From a virus, in IMG/VR virus record IMGVR_UViG_3300027863_001490: a stretch of 47,476 bases of DNA; one strand, given 5' to 3'. This document shows positions 2,815-47,476 of the stretch, one piece after another. The first letter of the stretch is position 1; every line of letters begins with the position of its first letter. A program made the position numbers and the translations under genes. The notes beneath the pieces were generated by a model. It did no database searches and had not been told where the DNA came from. It saw nothing but the letters and a program-made list of their open reading frames with translations.

Positions 2815-3369
2815 TTGAGTTATGGAACTAACAATCGAGGCGGCGGTTACGGCGGTCAAAACAGGCGTTCTGGTCATGGTTCAGGCAAAGGTAAGAAAAA
2901 AGACGATGATTTCACAGCAAAGTACCTGAGAGGCGACATTTCCGAGGATACATGGCGCCGACATCAAAATGCTGATCGACGCGCTAACGCTCCAACCATC
3001 GAAACTGTCATGGGTCAAATCTCGCAGAAAGCAAATGCTGAAAAAGGCTCTCAAGACTATCAAGGATGGACTAACTGGGATACATGGGAACTGATGCTTC
3101 TCCTCGAAAACACTCAACCTAGCGCAAAATGGTTAGATGCTTGGGCTGAGAATTTCGTCAAGAAAATTAAGCAAGGCAAATTTAGCGAGGAAGAAGCTGA
3201 AAAAGTCGTTGCGACATATCTGATTCCAGTGGCCAGAGGCACAAGAAAACCAGTGTTCTATGATGAATACCATGAATTTACTCCTGACGAAAACATCGAT
3301 CCGAAGAAAGTCAACAAAGCAGAAGTCGTTCATAACCTAATTCAGCGATACCAAGAAAATCATTCTTAA
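2815..3369 (+). CDS. RGG-leader protein 1 (contains GWTNWDTW motif)
   Basis: N-terminus MSYGTNNRGGGYGGQNRR shared with genes at 44374 and 44981; GWTNWxTW motif resembles one I recall from small phage proteins of unknown function. Confidence 0.8.
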   Translation: MSYGTNNRGGGYGGQNRRSGHGSGKGKKKDDDFTAKYLRGDISEDTWRRHQNADRRANAPTIETVMGQISQKANAEKGSQDYQGWTNWDTWELMLLLENTQPSAKWLDAWAENFVKKIKQGKFSEEEAEKVVATYLIPVARGTRKPVFYDEYHEFTPDENIDPKKVNKAEVVHNLIQRYQENHS

Positions 3370-19883: not shown

Positions 19884-19948
19884 CCCCATTTTTCTTTTAT
19901 TGATTTTTCTTTTAAGGATAAAATTGAATCTCGGAGGAAAAAACAGAA

Positions 19949-22918: not shown

Positions 22919-22947
22919 AAACCCTATTTTTCTTTTGTTGATACTGC

Positions 22948-23448
22948 TTGAATAAAAGGTTAAAGCTAAACAGAAGAGAAATTACCTTAGCCTGTTTAAT
23001 TGCCACGTTAAGCTTGGTATTGACGCTTAGACCTGTGCTCCTTTTTCTAAATCAACTCAACCCATTCGTCGGGATGCTCTTTTACTACGTTATACTTTTT
23101 AGCTGTTTAACCGTTCTCGGTCACTTCGGCTTAGTTATCTTCAACATAAAGATTAATAAGCCCCTTCAAACACTTGGGTTGCTACTCATAACATTCAGTT
23201 TCTTTATTGCCGTAGGTTTAAGTTCTGCCTATGTTCAATATGTCGCTACTGGTTCATTTACGGGCGCCAGCAATATTTACTATCAATGCGAAGACGGATC
23301 AGTTTTTTGGCTTTGGAGCCAACTTATCCCGTTAACTACTGACTTCAACATAACTTTAGCATGGGTCATGTCTTATGGAGTAACACCATTTATGCTCACT
23401 TTAATCGGTGGCTATTTAACATTCGAAAAACCACGCCTTAGCCTTTAA
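22948..23448 (+). CDS. Multi-pass membrane protein
   Basis: About four TM segments. Confidence 0.75.
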   Translation: MNKRLKLNRREITLACLIATLSLVLTLRPVLLFLNQLNPFVGMLFYYVILFSCLTVLGHFGLVIFNIKINKPLQTLGLLLITFSFFIAVGLSSAYVQYVATGSFTGASNIYYQCEDGSVFWLWSQLIPLTTDFNITLAWVMSYGVTPFMLTLIGGYLTFEKPRLSL

Positions 23449-23478
23449 CCGCATTTTTCTTTTAAGATGTGACTCTAT

Positions 23479-24492
23479 TTGGTAGGCATACAAGGAAAAA
23501 ATCTCACATGGCTGTTTTTGATTTTCTTTGTATCGCCCTGTGTTCTGCTCTTCATGCTGGCGGGGTCCAGAAGCCTCTCAGATTACATAACAACCACATT
23601 CTACGTGATAACCCTCGCTTTTTCCTTGATAATCTTGAAGGAAATCAACACTGACGAACAATACTATGAACCATTAACTTTAGAACCCTTAATCGCCTCG
23701 GTTCTTTTAGGCGTCGGCATGTTTGCTTTAAGCGCCGCTTTGAGTTTAAGCCTAAAAAACTCTGACATGCTCCTATCCATTGTTCCCTTGACTTTAACAG
23801 CGTCACCAACCAGCATCGCAACAACTTTTCTAAGTGCGTCCCTTTTCGGTTTAGCCTTAATCGCTAGTGGCGAAGAGCTCTGGAAGCTGCCGATGTTCGC
23901 TGAAGGACGTGCCCGATGGGGAAAAGGATACAATATTCCCCGAGTTGTCTTCGCGATCTGCATGTGCTTACTCGGCTTGTTAGTGGCAATGCTGCTTTTG
24001 AATGCTTTAAATGTGCTTTCATACTTCAACTTCGGCATAGTCGCCGTCGTTTTAATCGTGGTTTTCGCTTTAGTCTTCAGCTTAATTGTCAAGCGCCCAA
24101 AATTCACTGTTCCCGGCATCCTCATTTACGTCGGCGTCCCAGTCGGATTCTGGGCGGCGTTACATGGGATTGAAGCGTACAGTAACCCCGTCATGATTTT
24201 GCCAGCCGCCGTCAACGGAGTCGTATTAATTGTTTACCTCTGGAAATACCGTTGTATCCTAGGCTGCATTTTCGCCCACTTCATCTACAACACTCTCATA
24301 ACGGCGTTGTCTTACTTCAACGGGACAGCAAACGTGCAAGCTGGGCTTCCCCTGTTCCCCGACTTCTTTTCCCGATCATATTACAGTAACAGCGGCTTCA
24401 TCTACGATTACGCCGTCATCGCAATCTGGTTCTTCGGGGTTTTCCTGTTCCTGTTGCCGTCTTTGACGAAACAGAAGGCCAACAAAAAATGA
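23479..24492 (+). CDS. CPBP-family (Abi/PrsW-like) intramembrane glutamic protease
   Basis: GEELWK (EExxK), FWAALH, AHFIYN (HxxxN) in a polytopic protein. Confidence 0.8.
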   Translation: MVGIQGKNLTWLFLIFFVSPCVLLFMLAGSRSLSDYITTTFYVITLAFSLIILKEINTDEQYYEPLTLEPLIASVLLGVGMFALSAALSLSLKNSDMLLSIVPLTLTASPTSIATTFLSASLFGLALIASGEELWKLPMFAEGRARWGKGYNIPRVVFAICMCLLGLLVAMLLLNALNVLSYFNFGIVAVVLIVVFALVFSLIVKRPKFTVPGILIYVGVPVGFWAALHGIEAYSNPVMILPAAVNGVVLIVYLWKYRCILGCIFAHFIYNTLITALSYFNGTANVQAGLPLFPDFFSRSYYSNSGFIYDYAVIAIWFFGVFLFLLPSLTKQKANKK

Positions 24493-31257: not shown

Positions 31258-31292
31258 TATGATATGCGACATTTTTCTTTTGTGTATAATGC

Positions 31293-31619
31293 TTGAGTGA
31301 AGATAACGCCAGCCGTTCCATCCGCGTGGACAAAAAAACCGACGACAGAATAGAAGATATAAGCGAAGTGACGGGAGAAAGCAAAAAAGACATAATTGCC
31401 GGCGCTATGGCGGTGGTTGAATACTTTTTTAACAACAACGTCGGGTTTCCGTTAACTTATGCTGGTTTCGCTGAACTCCGAAGTTTAGAGGCCAACCGCC
31501 GAAGCTTGGACAGCGACCCATCGGCGACGCCCGAGATGAAGGAACAGTTTGACCGCCGAATCGCTGCGGTGCGTGCCAAATTAAAAAGCTACAGGGAGGC
31601 AGACGATCATGGCACTTAA
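31293..31619 (+). CDS. RHH-domain regulator
   Basis: RSIRVDKKTDDRIEDISEVTGESKKDIIAGAM. Confidence 0.75.
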   Translation: MSEDNASRSIRVDKKTDDRIEDISEVTGESKKDIIAGAMAVVEYFFNNNVGFPLTYAGFAELRSLEANRRSLDSDPSATPEMKEQFDRRIAAVRAKLKSYREADDHGT

Positions 31620-40682: not shown

Positions 40683-42044
40683 ATGCGTTTTGCCCCTAAA
40701 TTTTTTCTTGTTTTAGCAACTCTTTTTCTAAGCGTCGGCGTCGTATTGACTGGTTCGCTTGGTTACGCTCAACTTAACGGTTTAAGCTTAACAGGAGACA
40801 CCTACACCGTAAACTTTGACAGCGGCAACGGGTTTTCTCCTAGCTCCATCACGATTAACCGAGGAGACTTAGTTTATGTCGATTGGCCGCTTGAATCATA
40901 CACAATTTCTTATCCTGAAACTGCTACAGTAGAAATTTCTTGGAGCCTCGACGGTCACTATTTTGGAAGCACCGAAATAAGCGACGCAATAACTTTTACG
41001 CCGAAAACTAACCAGTATGGACTCACAGTTAACGGTTTAGTCCAATTCGACATTGCAGGCAAACACACGCTTTCTCTATATGTGGTTTGGGTTGGTCAAG
41101 AGGGGACGCCGTATTACTCGGGAACTTTTAGTTGCGAAGTCACCGTTAACGCTCCCGCCGTCAAGAAATCTTTGTCTCTTGCGGTTTCAGGCGAAGGAAG
41201 CTTGTATGCGGGTCCGTCATCTACCACTTGGGAAGTCACGATTTACGCTGGCGACTCTTCTACAAAGGTCTACGAGAGGGATCAATACTCGCTTGTTTAC
41301 CTCGAAGCCAGACCAACAGTTGGCTGGCGTTTTCTGTATTGGCTAATGAATGACGGTTCGCAGCGTACAAGCCAAGACATAGGCGTTGTCCTCGACGATG
41401 ACATGAGTGCGTTAGCTGTTTTCGGTCAACAAGCAGTTTTAACGGTTTCAACTGACGGTTTAGGCTACGTGACTGTTTCGCCTCCCATTGACCCGGGCGC
41501 CAGCAACGTTGACACAGTTTCTGCGGGGCAATCCAAACTTTTCCAGCATGACTTTGGAACACAAATCACGCTTTATGCTTGGCCATTAAGCAACTGTGCC
41601 TTTGACCATTGGATTCTCCCCGATGGCTCAACAAGCACAAGTAACCCCGTTTCGTTTACTTTGTCTTCTGACAGTTCTGTTCAAGCCGTTTTCCGTTATG
41701 GGTCTTCATCAACGCCTAACCCAACGGTTTCACCTACAGATCAGCCTTACCCCACTTTGGAGCCCACCGTAGCGCCGACAGTAGCTCCCACAGTTGAACC
41801 TACCCCTATTCCAACGGTGACTCCGCAACCAACACTTTACCCCACTCCCTCTCCAACTCCTACACTGCAACCCACCACCTCAGTTAACCCATCCGCTTCC
41901 CCCTCGCCGACGCCTTCAACAATCAACTTTTTTATCCCAAAAACTTACAGGACACTCGCATGGATTAGTGGCTTCGCATCTTTGGGTTTAAGCGGCGTCT
42001 GCTTTACATTCTTCAAGTTGACTTTGCCCCGTCGCCGCAGCTAG
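40683..42044 (+). CDS. Surface protein paralog A: Ig-like domain, two InlB B-repeats, PT linker, TM
   Basis: [30 protein letters not shown] then TM. Confidence 0.85.
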
Positions 42045-42091: not shown

Positions 42092-43498
42092 TTGAAGTCT
42101 GGCGCTAAAGTTTTCGTTTCAGTCGGCGCCGTTCTCTTTCTAATCGGAGCCGTATTATGTGGTTCCTTCCTTTATGCTCAAGCTAAAGGCTTAAGTCTTT
42201 TCGGTGACACCTACACCGTAAATTTTGTCGTCACTGGAACTCAGTGGCAGCAAACTGTGGGTTACGGCGATAACTGGTTCCAATATGAAGTAGGCTCTTT
42301 TGACTCTGCAAGCATCAACATCGCCCCCGGCGACTCCGTTTATTTTAACGTTCCAATAGGCGCTTACAGAAGCGGCGACGCCCTAATGTATCAGGTTTTG
42401 TGGGCTGTCTACAGTGGCGTCTCAGAAATCGGCGGCAACGTCAAACCTGACAGTCAAATCCCCGGCGAATACACCGCTAACGAGTACGGCGAAATTGCAA
42501 ACGCCAAAATGACTTTTCCAGCGGCAGGAACATACGATGTCCACTTGGTCTGTTACTCATACGGTCTTTATAGCGGTCCAAGCGCAACCATCACCGTAAA
42601 CGTTGTTGCACCACAGGTTTACAAAACGATCACCGTTGGCATTTCTGGGCAAGGCATGGTTACTGGCGGCTTGACTTCTGCAAAAATCAGTTCACCCGCC
42701 GAAAACCGCTTCGACGTGCATTCTGGCGACCCAAATTATGTCCGTGAATATCAACAGTTTTCTCTTCTCGACTTTACCGCTGGAGCTTACTCTGGCTACA
42801 AATTCGACCATTGGCTACTAAACGATGGCAGCACAAAAACCGACAACCCAATCAGCATCATCTTAGAGAACGACATGAGCATCCAAGCAATCTTTACGAG
42901 TCAAGGAGTCTTAACTGCCATGAGCGTCGGAAACGGCTACTTCACGATTTTTCCCGGCGTAACTGATCCGCACGCCGCGCAGGATATTGTTTATGCGGGT
43001 CAAACTAAGACTTTCCAGCATGACGCTGGCACCCAAATTGAGTTAGCTGCCTTCGGAAACAGCGGTTCACAGTTTGACCATTGGGTTCTGCCTGATGGTC
43101 GAACTTCAACGAGTTACACTGAATCCTTCACTATGGGTAGCACTGGAACCGTGATTGCTTATTTCACTTCAACATCTTCTCCAACTGCTACCCCAACTCA
43201 AACGCCGTCTCCAACTGAAACGCCTTACCCAACTTTGCCGCCTGAGACGCCTTTGCCGACTGCGGAGCCAACGCCGATTCCAACAAACACGGCTCAACCA
43301 ACAGTAACGCCGACCCCCACGCCGACTGCGGCGCCGACAAGTAACCCGACGCAGCAGCCAACGCCTACCCCGACGATTCAGCCTTCGAATCCGACTTTCT
43401 GGATTCCAAAAGGATACCGCTTCTATGCGTTGCTCGCAGGCATCTTTAGCTTATTCGGTAGCGCCTTCTGTTTCGTAATCGCCAAAAAGTACGGTTAA
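42092..43498 (+). CDS. Surface protein paralog B
   Basis: [30 protein letters not shown] then TM. Confidence 0.85.
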   Translation: MKSGAKVFVSVGAVLFLIGAVLCGSFLYAQAKGLSLFGDTYTVNFVVTGTQWQQTVGYGDNWFQYEVGSFDSASINIAPGDSVYFNVPIGAYRSGDALMYQVLWAVYSGVSEIGGNVKPDSQIPGEYTANEYGEIANAKMTFPAAGTYDVHLVCYSYGLYSGPSATITVNVVAPQVYKTITVGISGQGMVTGGLTSAKISSPAENRFDVHSGDPNYVREYQQFSLLDFTAGAYSGYKFDHWLLNDGSTKTDNPISIILENDMSIQAIFTSQGVLTAMSVGNGYFTIFPGVTDPHAAQDIVYAGQTKTFQHDAGTQIELAAFGNSGSQFDHWVLPDGRTSTSYTESFTMGSTGTVIAYFTSTSSPTATPTQTPSPTETPYPTLPPETPLPTAEPTPIPTNTAQPTVTPTPTPTAAPTSNPTQQPTPTPTIQPSNPTFWIPKGYRFYALLAGIFSLFGSAFCFVIAKKYG

Positions 43499-43521: not shown

Positions 43522-43815
43522 ATGGGTTTAGGTAAAGTATTCGGCGTCGTCATGCTTGTTTACGGAGTTGCTTGCATAATTTTTGATTACGTCGGCTTCG
43601 TATTTTCGACGATCCCGAATCTTGGCGTTTTCGGCAGTTGGCTCTTTAACCCGCTTGGCATGGCTTTCAGTAACATAATCACTTCGAATCTTGTAGGCGG
43701 CAACCCAATTTTGGGGTTGGGAAGCTCAGGGATCGCTTGGGCTGTCGGCGGCGTCTTAGCGTTTTTCTGGATTTCCATAATGCTGTTTTTCGGGTCCAAA
43801 CTGGTTAGGCGTTGA
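43522..43815 (+). CDS. Small Gly-rich membrane protein
   Basis: Hydrophobic throughout. Confidence 0.75.
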   Translation: MGLGKVFGVVMLVYGVACIIFDYVGFVFSTIPNLGVFGSWLFNPLGMAFSNIITSNLVGGNPILGLGSSGIAWAVGGVLAFFWISIMLFFGSKLVRR

Positions 43816-43844
43816 CTTTCCATTTTTCTTTTAAGTGAATTATC

Positions 43845-44339
43845 ATGTGGGGCATACGCGATCTGGGCATAGCTGGGGCAACTTTGACAATTCTTACAAT
43901 AGGGATTGTTCCCATCTTGATTATTGTCGGTGTTTTGCTTGCGGTGGGAGTTGTCGGTGCCTTTTTAACTGGTTGGTTAAACACTATCATTTACTTGTTT
44001 GCCGGCATCGGAATTTCTTGGCTTGTAAACGGAGGCTTGAAGTTTTTCGGCGTTTCCAGCCCTGTACGTTTTCTGCTCATCATCCTCATTGTGTTGGTTA
44101 TGTCATTGATTGGCTGGGGCATAAACCACACAAGCTACTTTTCCATGATGCCTAATCCGACAAGCTTAATCGCTTCTCAACCTGAAATTGTTCTCTCACA
44201 GAACAGTGTGACAGGCGAAATCTTCGGTTTCACGTTGGATTTCCAGACTTTCGGTGCATTCATGTCCACGTTAGGTGCCGCCCTCGGGGTCGTTTCGGTT
44301 TGGCTTGTAACCCGGAAACCAAAGAAACATCACCGTTAA
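43845..44339 (+). CDS. Multi-pass membrane protein (matrix-like candidate)
   Basis: About four TM; RKPKKHHR tail. Confidence 0.75.
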   Translation: MWGIRDLGIAGATLTILTIGIVPILIIVGVLLAVGVVGAFLTGWLNTIIYLFAGIGISWLVNGGLKFFGVSSPVRFLLIILIVLVMSLIGWGINHTSYFSMMPNPTSLIASQPEIVLSQNSVTGEIFGFTLDFQTFGAFMSTLGAALGVVSVWLVTRKPKKHHR

Positions 44340-44373
44340 ATTCCACCATTTTTCTTTTAAGAGTTGAACAAAA

Positions 44374-44944
44374 TTGAGTTATGGAACTAACAGTCGAGGC
44401 GGCGGTTATGGTGGAAGAAATAGAGGTTCAAGTAAGCGTTTTGCTATGCGTACCGCCAAAAAAATTGCGTTTTGCTATGCGTACCGCCAAAAAAATTGAC
44501 CGCGTTGTTGACAGAATGGAAAACCTCATAGATGACGTACAAAAGACTGGCAACCAAGCGGCTGACGTACATCTTAACCGTGCGGGTCTAGAAGCTAATC
44601 GGGCTTCAAGAGCTCTGAAGAACGATGATGGCAAAACAAAGCCAAAGGCTAATTATAGGTTGACTGATAAAGAGCTTGAAGCAGAAGACAAAAGAGACCA
44701 CTATAATTTCGATAGGCTTGTAAATAAAGACGACATCGATACCACAAACCCAAAGAACAAAAAAATCTACTATCAAATACTTGCGGTCTTGGAAAAGAAT
44801 AAGATTCCATACTATGCAGATACTCACTTGGATAAAAAGGATGATTCTGCTGATTCTTCATTGCTTGTCTCAAGAGAAAATATGCCTAGAGCAGAAAAAT
44901 TAATTCAAGGACTCTACATTGCTTTGCGGAAAACTTTTGACTAA
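44374..44944 (+). pseudogene. RGG-leader protein 2, frameshifted by a 31-bp duplication
   Basis: TTG 44374 gives LSYGTNSRGGGYGGRNRGSSKRFAMRTAKKI then stop at 44497-44499; removing one copy restores the frame to 44944. Confidence 0.75.
44436..44497 (+). repeat. 31-bp tandem duplication GCGTTTTGCTATGCGTACCGCCAAAAAAATT x2
   Basis: Exact copies 44436-44466 and 44467-44497. Confidence 0.9.
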
Positions 44945-44980
44945 TCTTCCTTTTTCTTTTTTCTTTTGTCGGTGTCATGT

Positions 44981-45409
44981 ATGAGTTATGATGCTCGGGG
45001 CGGCAGCGGCTACGGCGGTCAGAACCGTAGAGGTTCACGTTTCGGCAAAAGCAAAGGTCATCAAGATGATGGCTGGCGGGTTCCCGAGGCTGGTCAGGGT
45101 CCGAAGGGCGTCATCAGATTTTTGCCTGAGCCGATTGCTGGAATAATCAAGGTTGACGAAACCGAGAACGAGTACCGTTTCCGTGTTTGCGATCCTGAAG
45201 GGTTTGTTAAATTTCGTAATACGGATTTCGGCGGGAAACTTCCCGAGGGTGTATCTGTTATTTATGCTGAGACTCCAGAAAACCAGTGGATGGTTCAGAG
45301 TGTCAGGTTCGAGAAGGAAATCTTTGGTTTTGAGGAAGCTCAAAGTTGGCTGCGTGGGCATCAGGATTTGTTTGCTGGCGGCGGCGCTCAACCACCTGAA
45401 ATCCCCTAA
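44981..45409 (+). CDS. RGG-leader protein 3
   Basis: MSYDARGGSGYGGQNRRGS leader; DETENEYRFRV...VQSVRFEK...EEAQSWL domain resembles a small domain I recall from phage head-related proteins. Confidence 0.8.
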   Translation: MSYDARGGSGYGGQNRRGSRFGKSKGHQDDGWRVPEAGQGPKGVIRFLPEPIAGIIKVDETENEYRFRVCDPEGFVKFRNTDFGGKLPEGVSVIYAETPENQWMVQSVRFEKEIFGFEEAQSWLRGHQDLFAGGGAQPPEIP

Positions 45410-45440
45410 ATCTTCCCATAGTGCTGTTTTTGGGAACATT
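45409..45440. promoter_or_regulatory. Palindrome AATCTTCCCA-N12-TGGGAACATT (site 2)
   Basis: One mismatch to site 1, same spacer length, starts at the stop codon of the preceding gene. Confidence 0.75.
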
Positions 45441-47023: not shown

Positions 47024-47038
47024 TGTTATGGAGTGATT

Positions 47039-47476
47039 ATGGTGCTAAAAATCAAATATCGGCTAGCTCCCGTTGTGGTCGAAAATGACGTAAACCGAAC
47101 GCTCAGGGACTTAGCCAAAGAATTTCAAGAAATTTTCGAAGACGACAATAAAGCCAACATATTTGAAAAAGAGCTTAGAGCCAAGTTTGACTTAAACGGT
47201 ACAGAGAACACGCCTAGAGGGAAAACCAATTCAATATTTGGAGAAAAAACAAAAATGAACAAAAAACAAAAAAAGCAATTAGTGCCAATCTGGAAGGAGT
47301 ACGAGGACAAGAGAGCGCAAATCTTGAAGGAGTACGAGGACAAGGAAGCGCCAATCTGGAAGGAGTACGAGGACAAGAGAGCGCCAATCTGGAAGGAGTA
47401 CGAGGACAAGAGAGCGCAAATCTTGAAGGAGTACGAGGACAAGAGAGCGCAAATCTTGAAGGAGAAAAAACAAAAA
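47039..47476 (+). CDS. Junction-spanning ORF (continues to stop at 128-130) with 11-aa repeats; internal start possible at 47255
   Basis: Open frame encodes ...VPIWKEYEDKR-AQILKEYEDKE-APIWKEYEDKR...KKQK*. Confidence 0.7.
   Translation, partial: MVLKIKYRLAPVVVENDVNRTLRDLAKEFQEIFEDDNKANIFEKELRAKFDLNGTENTPRGKTNSIFGEKTKMNKKQKKQLVPIWKEYEDKRAQILKEYEDKEAPIWKEYEDKRAPIWKEYEDKRAQILKEYEDKRAQILKEKKQK
47282..47464 (+). repeat. 33-bp coding tandem repeat, five full units plus one partial
   Basis: Two unit types (CCAATCTGG / CAAATCTTG) in order A B A A B B. Confidence 0.9.
47350..47476. repeat. Terminal redundancy, identical to 1-127
   Basis: Exact match. Confidence 0.9.

Follow-up and report, generated by a model that had tools for sequence, protein, structure and literature searches.

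Three genes of one circular element share an N-terminal leader

The DNA analysed here, hereafter the window, is the IMG/VR record IMGVR_UViG_3300027863_001490 of 47,476 nucleotides (nt), and all positions are counted along this whole stretch. The window is a circle of ~47,349 bp, the first 127-128 bases of which are repeated at its end (1-160 and 47251-47476). Exactly three of its open reading frames (ORFs), all on the + strand and starting at 2815 (TTG), 44374 (TTG) and 44981 (ATG), begin with the same short peptide, here called the leader, and the genes concerned are referred to as A, B and C. A degenerate pattern of the leader DNA occurred at exactly these three sites of the window, with 0 expected from 100 shuffles. 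A hidden Markov model (HMM) of the leader, run against the six-frame translation of the window, found the three sites with E-values of 6e-10, 1e-8 and 1e-5, the next best match having an E-value of 0.9. The ORFs, the DNA pattern and the HMM thus confirm the original prediction, made from the letters of the window, that three genes have a leader in common.

Gene A (2815-3369) encodes 184 amino acids (aa), with the leader core at 2815-2868, a basic tail reaching to ~2910 and a helical, DUF7249-like body at ~3022-3348. Its front end (2790-2814) carries a T-run and a Shine-Dalgarno-like GAGTTGA box 6 nt before the TTG, and a nearly identical front end (44349-44373) precedes gene B. The leader ORF of gene B (44374-44499; TTG start, core at 44374-44427) has 41 codons and is ended by a frameshift. 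A perfect 31-nt tandem duplication at 44436-44497, the unit of which holds a run of eight A (A8), separates this leader from body B, which comprises 158 aa from the second repeat copy (44468-44944) and includes a C-terminal domain at ~44705-44941. Gene C (44981-45409, 142 aa) has its leader core at 44981-45031, followed by a disordered basic linker to ~45100 and by a beta-rich domain plus helix at ~45110-45373. Bodies A, B and C showed no mutual similarity in BLASTP or hhalign comparisons.

The front ends of genes A and B, together with their leaders, form a 92-nt direct repeat (2790-2881 versus 44349-44440) with 83% identity. The first 63 nt of this repeat, including the 25 nt upstream of the start codon, hold 4 mismatches, in agreement with the near-identity over ~65 nt of upstream DNA and leader noted before. 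The leader copies differ mostly at synonymous sites, which indicates that the leader frame is the coding frame, and in both genes a stop codon in the same frame stands two codons before the TTG. A 33-nt element with a palindrome (AATGTTCCCA...TGGGAACATT) is present in two copies that are 79% identical (2722-2754 and 45408-45440); one begins at the stop codon of gene C and the other 60 nt before gene A, so that both adjoin leader genes. These palindromic elements may be terminators or operators.

Gene B is frameshifted and its front end resembles that of gene A

The two copies of the 31-nt unit in gene B (44436-44466 and 44467-44497; 100% identity, spacing 31) move the body to the +1 frame, and a single copy would give an intact, in-frame leader-body gene. 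The leader is in frame in the body-B homologues P0003, P0005, P0006, L003 and L004. The claim that each leader is followed by an unrelated body therefore stood with regard to the dissimilarity of the bodies, by BLASTP, hhalign and predicted fold, and fell at 44374, where the leader is not in frame with its body. Body B can be read only in the +1 frame, from an ATG at 44381, within a 187-aa ORF (44381-44944) in which an unrelated 29-residue N-terminus replaces the basic leader. This ATG arises from the S-Y-G codons (AGT TAT GGA) of the leader, which the ORF reads out of frame before it enters the intact body, and a leaderless protein B could still be expressed from it. We considered whether the +1 frame (MELT..., from the ATG inside S-Y-G) was the true frame of the leader, and rejected this in view of the synonymous differences in the leader frame and of the ATG not being conserved in relatives. 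Split from its leader by the duplication, this copy of gene B is either a pseudogene or expressed without a leader. A rescue by programmed frameshifting would take either one +1 shift or two -1 shifts in succession and was considered unlikely; it is speculation that slippage losing one A of the A8 run would restore the frame.

Two database gene calls, P0002 and P0015, have the same frameshifted reading; their contigs of 47,490 and 47,472 nt (JGI, ENA and MetaClust) are consistent with one 47,349-bp circle assembled with different overlaps. Since the frameshifted reading stands on several database contigs, the duplication is probably not an artefact of a single assembler.

To place the front end of gene B, front ends were compared across the 25 nt before the start codon and 54 nt of coding DNA. 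Identity of the window's B front end with that of gene A is 86%, against 56-67% with those of the B orthologues, which are 65-75% identical among themselves. The leader of gene B is thus closer to that of gene A than to those of the B orthologues, and it belongs with its genomic neighbour rather than with its own family. This comparison of nucleotide sequences suggests that the A and B front ends were exchanged by recombination or gene conversion inside the element, and supports the proposal that expression signal and leader moved together as a module. Immediately past the point where the A/B similarity ends lies the 31-nt duplication, which may be a scar of the exchange.

The leader is rare and recurs on different bodies in Bathyarchaeia

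Searches for the leader beyond the window returned few matches. Against 1.84 billion representative proteins, the leader HMM gave 7 matches at E<=1e-3, all at residues 1-30. The leader DNA pattern found nothing in IMG/VR and a single match in JGI metagenomes, an internal Gly-rich stretch of a high-GC protein that was read as chance, and a word search with the first 40 residues of protein A returned the orthologue of A only. A profile of body B, searched against species-representative genomes, found two Bathyarchaeota metagenome-assembled genomes (MAGs). Among 401 genomes of the order of these MAGs, the leader HMM detected true N-terminal copies in about a dozen, and a class-wide sample of 401 genomes added three further genomes, one convincing (G224) and two with weak, partial matches; both samples consist of incomplete MAGs. 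All genomic leader matches begin at the start codon, and in several an in-frame stop lies 1-4 codons upstream. These results indicate that the leader is a rare, lineage-restricted motif of a subset of Bathyarchaeia, which are sediment archaea.

The leader was found on at least eight small soluble protein bodies (A, B, C, D, E, F, G and B'), at least five of them beyond the window. They are encoded by mobile elements with an integrase, and also by scattered copies in chromosomes, within a single order of Bathyarchaeia. Family D (~161 aa) occurs in genomes G173, G337 and G225 and twice in G381; family E has ~245 aa, F has 99 aa and G (P0014) has 119 aa. In B', a B-type N-domain is joined to another C-terminus, and short leader forms of 65-67 aa consist of the B N-domain alone. 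The expectation that the leader would recur on new bodies in related genomes was therefore borne out: genomes and metagenomes of Bathyarchaeia yielded D, E, F, G and B'. No above-threshold match in Pfam, PHROGs, NCBIfam or PADLOC was obtained for any of A, B, C, D, E, F and B', nor for the membrane proteins encoded beside them. No description of the motif was found in the databanks or the literature searched, and a literature search on RGG (Arg-Gly-Gly) motifs in archaeal viruses returned nothing relevant.

The B family is multi-copy in the chromosomes of two Bathyarchaeota MAGs (L003:9731-12626, L004:9734-12255, L010:60-1562 and L008:330-1590), where the copies adjoin transposases of the insertion sequence (IS) type, an AbrB-like gene and a gene for a 139-aa membrane protein. 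Several of these copies have a truncation or frameshift immediately behind the leader (34, 37, 47 and 27 aa), and the 65-67-aa forms end at one point after the N-domain.

The leader is conserved as a peptide

In an alignment of 15 leaders from different bodies, the leader core reads M-[S]-Y-x(4-5)-G-x-Y-G-x-[Q/N]-x-[R/H], with a length of 17-20 aa and fixed spacing. M1, Y3, Y12 and G13 are invariant, and Ser at position 2, [Q/N] at 15 and [R/H] at 17 are usual. The core is followed by 10-15 variable residues that are always Lys/Arg-rich, and the first 35 residues have a net charge of +4 to +11 in 16/16 genes, compared with an isoelectric point of 4.7 to 10 for the bodies (15 genes, read in the right frame). 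In the AlphaFold2 (AF2) model of protein C, the predicted local distance difference test (pLDDT) is 41-49 for residues 1-40 and 75-90 for the body; the alignments behind this and the other structure models were shallow, with 6-9 sequences. As far as these models go, the leader is a portable, intrinsically disordered, basic N-terminal module.

The leader had been described as RGG-rich, and nucleic-acid binding and phase separation had been argued from this composition. We found that each of the three window leaders contains a single RGG, and that closely spaced RGG/RG repeats of the di- or tri-RGG type (two or more) are therefore not present in them; of the features of RGG/RG regions, it is the predicted disorder of residues 1-40 of protein C that the leader shares. 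Homologues of body B (P0003, P0005 and P0006), of body C (P0008) and of body A (P0001) carry a related N-terminal peptide, mostly without RGG. What is conserved in these relatives is the Y/G/Q/R core, and the phase-separation argument rests on residues that the orthologues lack.

An alternative that keeps to composition is that the leader acts in the cell as a generic nucleic-acid-binding or condensate arm, with Tyr/Arg stickers in a Gly/Ser/Asn spacer, and contributes to a chromatin-like coating or to replication or transcription foci with no particle loading. The positive charge of the first 35 residues, their richness in Gly, Ser, Asn and Gln and the predicted disorder agree with such an arm, as do the language-model neighbours of protein D, which are N-terminal low-complexity regions of eukaryotic RNA helicases (weak matches, score 0.90). 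However, the fixed spacing and the invariant Y3, Y12 and G13 across unrelated bodies exceed the needs of charge-driven binding, and most relatives have no RGG.

It could also be that what is conserved is an RNA-level expression signal, made up of the ribosome-binding site, a weak TTG start and the first codons, and that the peptide itself is functionless. The start codon is TTG in 12/16 leader genes, a T-run/GAGG arrangement lies upstream in 15/16 leader genes of other genomes, and the near-identity of genes A and B reaches into non-coding DNA. Yet conservation is at the amino-acid level: codons are mixed across genomes (Ser as AGT, TCA or TCT; Tyr as TAT or TAC; Gly as GGC, GGT or GGA), and front-end DNA is just 52-75% identical between genomes, which together argue for selection on the peptide. 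The upstream motif is, moreover, generic in this element. We consider a purely RNA-level signal highly improbable.

Part of the upstream DNA shared by genes A and B (TTTTTCTTTTAAG) recurs at 23446 and 43805, in front of other genes of the element, and variants of the motif belonging to the D4 family were found at 19888, 22926, 31271 and 34792 in a repeat search of the window. The T-run part is thus a generic intergenic signal of the element, and its presence alone proves nothing. Of the shared expression signal that had been proposed, the near-identity between A and B is real, and the T-run part is not specific to the leader genes. The motif ATTTTTCTTTT(AAG/GTT) stands in front of several genes of the element (23446-23481, 43805-43835, 19888-19918, 22926-22956 and 31271-31301) and is probably a general terminator/ribosome-binding or promoter signal; in related elements, TTTTTTCTATTGAGG precedes the leader genes.

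The bodies differ in fold and have leaderless relatives

Three different folds were predicted for the bodies: body A is helical, body B has a confidently predicted C-terminal beta-alpha-beta-beta-alpha domain and body C is, in its AF2 model, a beta-rich domain with a C-terminal helix. The bodies therefore do not appear to be structural homologues, a possibility that the original prediction had named as one that would speak against it.

The orthologue of protein A (P0001) is 85% identical and carries the leader. Body A matched Pfam DUF7249 (PF23907) over residues 80-112 with 17.3 bits (E 0.01), below the gathering threshold of 27 bits, and the best match of its Atlas model was a DUF7249 cluster (residues 70-178; TM-score 0.67 by target and 0.39 by query). 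The sole match of body A in IMG/VR, a distant one, is an A-type WTNW(D/E)TW domain that lies, leaderless, inside a 962-aa protein of a 127-kb viral contig. In 401 Bathyarchaeia genomes body A gave chance-level matches only. Fold searches with body B returned only generic helical hairpins on its low-confidence part and no match for the C-terminal domain. Bodies B and C had no match in IMG/VR, and A and C had none in GenBank phages by tblastn.

A profile of body C detected leaderless ORFs of ~103 aa in 11 Bathyarchaeia genomes, with E-values of 4.5e-9 to 2e-4 per genome and 15 invariant columns. Such an ORF lies directly downstream of the portal gene in 10 loci, and in the eleventh (G373) it is fused to the C-terminus of the portal (phrog_9232, E 1e-17). 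Window gene C is unlike these portal-adjacent relatives: it follows gene B, carries the leader and is not beside a portal gene. The best fold matches of body C in BFVD were long proteins of uncultured tailed viruses, one of them named prohead protease (32% identical over 65 columns). Body C also resembled the plant domain BRX (PF08381) over residues 89-123 with 18.9 bits (E 9.6e-4), below the gathering threshold of 24.5 bits; its sole resemblance in the PDB, a weak one, was to BRX chain 6l0v_E (Foldseek probability 0.98, E 0.21, root mean square deviation (rmsd) 2.2 over 54 columns), and VIA-align compared body C with BRX at a Z-score of 5.7 and an rmsd of 4.2 over 60 aligned residues. The portal-adjacent domain itself has ~100 aa, is found in tailed proviruses of many Bathyarchaeia with the consensus MPGLEE..WRYRV.DP.KF.KFRV...W.IQNY.FEK (L053:1405-2895 on the - strand, L052 and L054-L062), and had no match in Pfam, PHROGs or NCBIfam.

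Since the bodies differ in fold and occur without the leader elsewhere, the leader appears to have been joined to domains of separate origin. Under the alternative of ordinary paralogy, one ancestral small protein would have kept its N-terminus while its bodies diverged beyond recognition. Some leader proteins are indeed true paralogues, as the N-domain behind the leader is common to B, B' and E, and a C-terminal motif is common to D and E. However, the predicted folds of A, B and C differ, and the leaderless C and A domains in other types of virus require fusion rather than divergence, so that paralogy is very unlikely to account for the whole set. In hhalign comparisons among A, B, C, D and E, nothing was common beyond the leader except this 27-residue C-terminal motif of D and E, with a probability of 54%. 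The motif (..D..Y.GN.+N.L...G[FY]T.) was seen at L044:7934-9551 and L045:10382-11625, and the remainder of these proteins differs.

Leader genes follow genes for small membrane proteins

Genes B and C lie directly behind a membrane-protein gene in the window, as had been noticed before: a 164-aa protein with four transmembrane (TM)-like segments is encoded at 43845-44339 (+ strand), and its gene ends 34 nt before gene B. The same arrangement was found in other genomes. In 7/7 cases (window, G173, G337, G225 and G381), blocks of leader genes lie 26-146 nt downstream of a same-strand gene for a small protein with 2-4 TM-like segments, and the leader genes are often paired (B+C, D+E twice, B'+D). 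The leader loci of G173, G337 and G225 are integrase-bearing elements (phrog_1, E 8e-6), and the integrase and two further genes are common to the window. In G173, D and E are each preceded by their own two-helix membrane protein of 81-86 aa.

Upstream of the B/C pair, the window encodes a 468-aa membrane-anchored protein (42092-43498) with InlB B-repeat domains (Flg_new_2, E 1e-13) and a Pro/Thr-rich stalk, and stretches paralogous to this gene lie at 40735-40818 and 41517-41566. The circle junction falls inside an array of 33-nt tandem repeats, which encodes KEYEDKRAQIL-type repeats of an ORF starting at 47033.

A tentative role of the leader in assembly

The motif, its strict N-terminal position, predicted disorder and charge, the variety of bodies behind it, the synteny with genes for membrane proteins and the front-end exchange were all observed in silico. 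The reading that we tentatively favour, without regarding it as established, is that the leader acts as a common address by which various small proteins reach the DNA-membrane assembly of the element. That unrelated bodies carry a core of fixed spacing argues for its recognition by one partner, and a stretch that is always basic and yet variable argues for unspecific binding to DNA or acidic lipid. An assembly or transfer apparatus is suggested by the location of the leader genes behind those for membrane proteins, and by the portal-context ancestry of body C. The Tyr/Gly/Gln/Arg core would then dock onto one common, hypothetical partner, while the basic stretch would attach to DNA or to acidic lipid. 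In this way, proteins of many kinds could be gathered at one place, most likely the DNA-membrane assembly formed by the small membrane proteins encoded upstream, and might serve there as internal (matrix- or nucleoprotein-like) or co-transferred proteins.

Several observations weigh against such an address. No candidate receptor for the core was found, and the docking, the DNA binding and the incorporation into particles are inferred. The leaderless copy of gene B persists in all database copies of the element, so that the leader is not obviously indispensable for body B. Gene A of the window and F in G348 do not follow a membrane-protein gene. Stand-alone, leader-bearing copies of the B family lie in MAG chromosomes beside IS transposases with no membrane-gene context, which suggests that the leader also works, or decays, outside an evident particle module. 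The fusexin-like protein of the window, for which co-occurrence with the leader had been proposed, gave no match when used as the single query against five leader-bearing genomes.

The chromosomal copies, which stand outside any structural module, are also what would be expected of the generic nucleic-acid-binding arm considered above. The consistent placement of the leader genes behind membrane-protein genes is not, and we regard that alternative as doubtful, although it merits serious attention. In another alternative, the leader would dock a host factor, either to direct unpackaged intracellular effectors of takeover or anti-defence or as a degradation/turnover signal that sets their timing. 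The core does resemble a short linear motif, the bodies are diverse and quickly exchanged with their front ends swapped, and leader genes occur outside the elements too. Against this, no match to a defence or anti-defence family was obtained with PADLOC, body C is related to a portal-adjacent domain of morphogenesis context, and the synteny is with membrane-protein genes and not with early or regulatory genes. Host docking thus appears decidedly unlikely, and the shared address at the assembly of the element remains the reading that we prefer.

Comparison with known systems

RGG/RG (glycine-arginine-rich, GAR) motifs are a feature of eukaryotic RNA-binding proteins, and proteins of the FUS type carry [G/S]Y[G/S] low-complexity motifs. 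The leader is similar to both in its Gly/Arg/Tyr composition, its predicted disorder and the single RGG of each window copy. It differs in that most relatives have no RGG (for example KGNYGSQ and SGHGYGNQ), in that positions and not just composition are conserved, and in that it is strictly N-terminal. Disordered, Arg/Lys-rich N-terminal arms are also known from capsid and nucleocapsid proteins, each on one capsid protein and without a fixed-spacing core. Like these arms, the leader is N-terminal, predicted to be disordered, strongly basic and encoded in the structural part of the genome. Unlike them, it is found on many unrelated bodies and has a fixed-spacing core, and no capsid fold was found here.

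In spindle-shaped viruses, including the Bathyarchaeia provirus Huangdivirus, a basic DNA-binding virion protein, VP2, is described as encoded beside the two-helix capsid proteins VP1 and VP3, and the consulted passages of this virome survey of Bathyarchaeia, which covers tailed, filamentous and spindle-shaped viruses, do not mention the leader (PMC10541130). The likeness lies in a gene for a small basic protein beside genes for proteins with two hydrophobic helices, on an integrase-bearing archaeal element of the same host class; the difference is that VP2 is a single family, whereas the leader is on many bodies. No sequence match was obtained, PHROGs returning none for the membrane or leader proteins, and no profile-profile search against VP1-3 was made.

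To our knowledge, nothing is known of the way in which archaeal elements that are membrane-borne or lack a capsid select the proteins accompanying their DNA. We know of no genetic system for Bathyarchaeia, so that sequence signatures are the main way in. A rare leader peptide with conserved positions, present on many unrelated bodies and encoded beside small membrane proteins, offers a testable handle on element-encoded proteins of this lineage and a key with which to search for them. The window, with a front-end exchange and a possible 31-nt scar, is a natural case of the shuffling of leaders and bodies.

The internal proteins of bacteriophage T4 are highly diverse, and the only part conserved among them is the capsid targeting sequence (CTS; Rao & Black 2010, PMC3012670). 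The likeness to the leader is that a short N-terminal peptide alone is common to diverse small proteins of one mobile genome, and that this peptide and the neighbouring expression signals are kept while the bodies swap. The original prediction of a tag that loads effectors for delivery can be put in these terms: the leader would be a packaging and delivery signal of capsid-less, membrane-borne elements of Bathyarchaeia, by which any tagged protein would enter a transfer particle together with the DNA and be passed on to the next host. The leader would then be an archaeal counterpart of the T4 CTS, with front ends recombined between genes to equip new cargo. We consider this stronger version unlikely. 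If it were true, the leader would also serve as a ready-made tag with which foreign proteins could be brought into such particles.

The T4 CTS is cut off by the prohead protease, and no conserved cleavage site was evident after the leader core in the leader alignment. The CTS targets the scaffolding core of a tailed-phage prohead, the two sequences are unrelated, and packaging can only be supposed for the leader. No prohead, scaffold or protease is evident in the element, where no systematic search for a prohead protease was made. In logic, the T4 CTS is the closest known system, the common N-terminal peptide being the one checked feature that the leader has of it.

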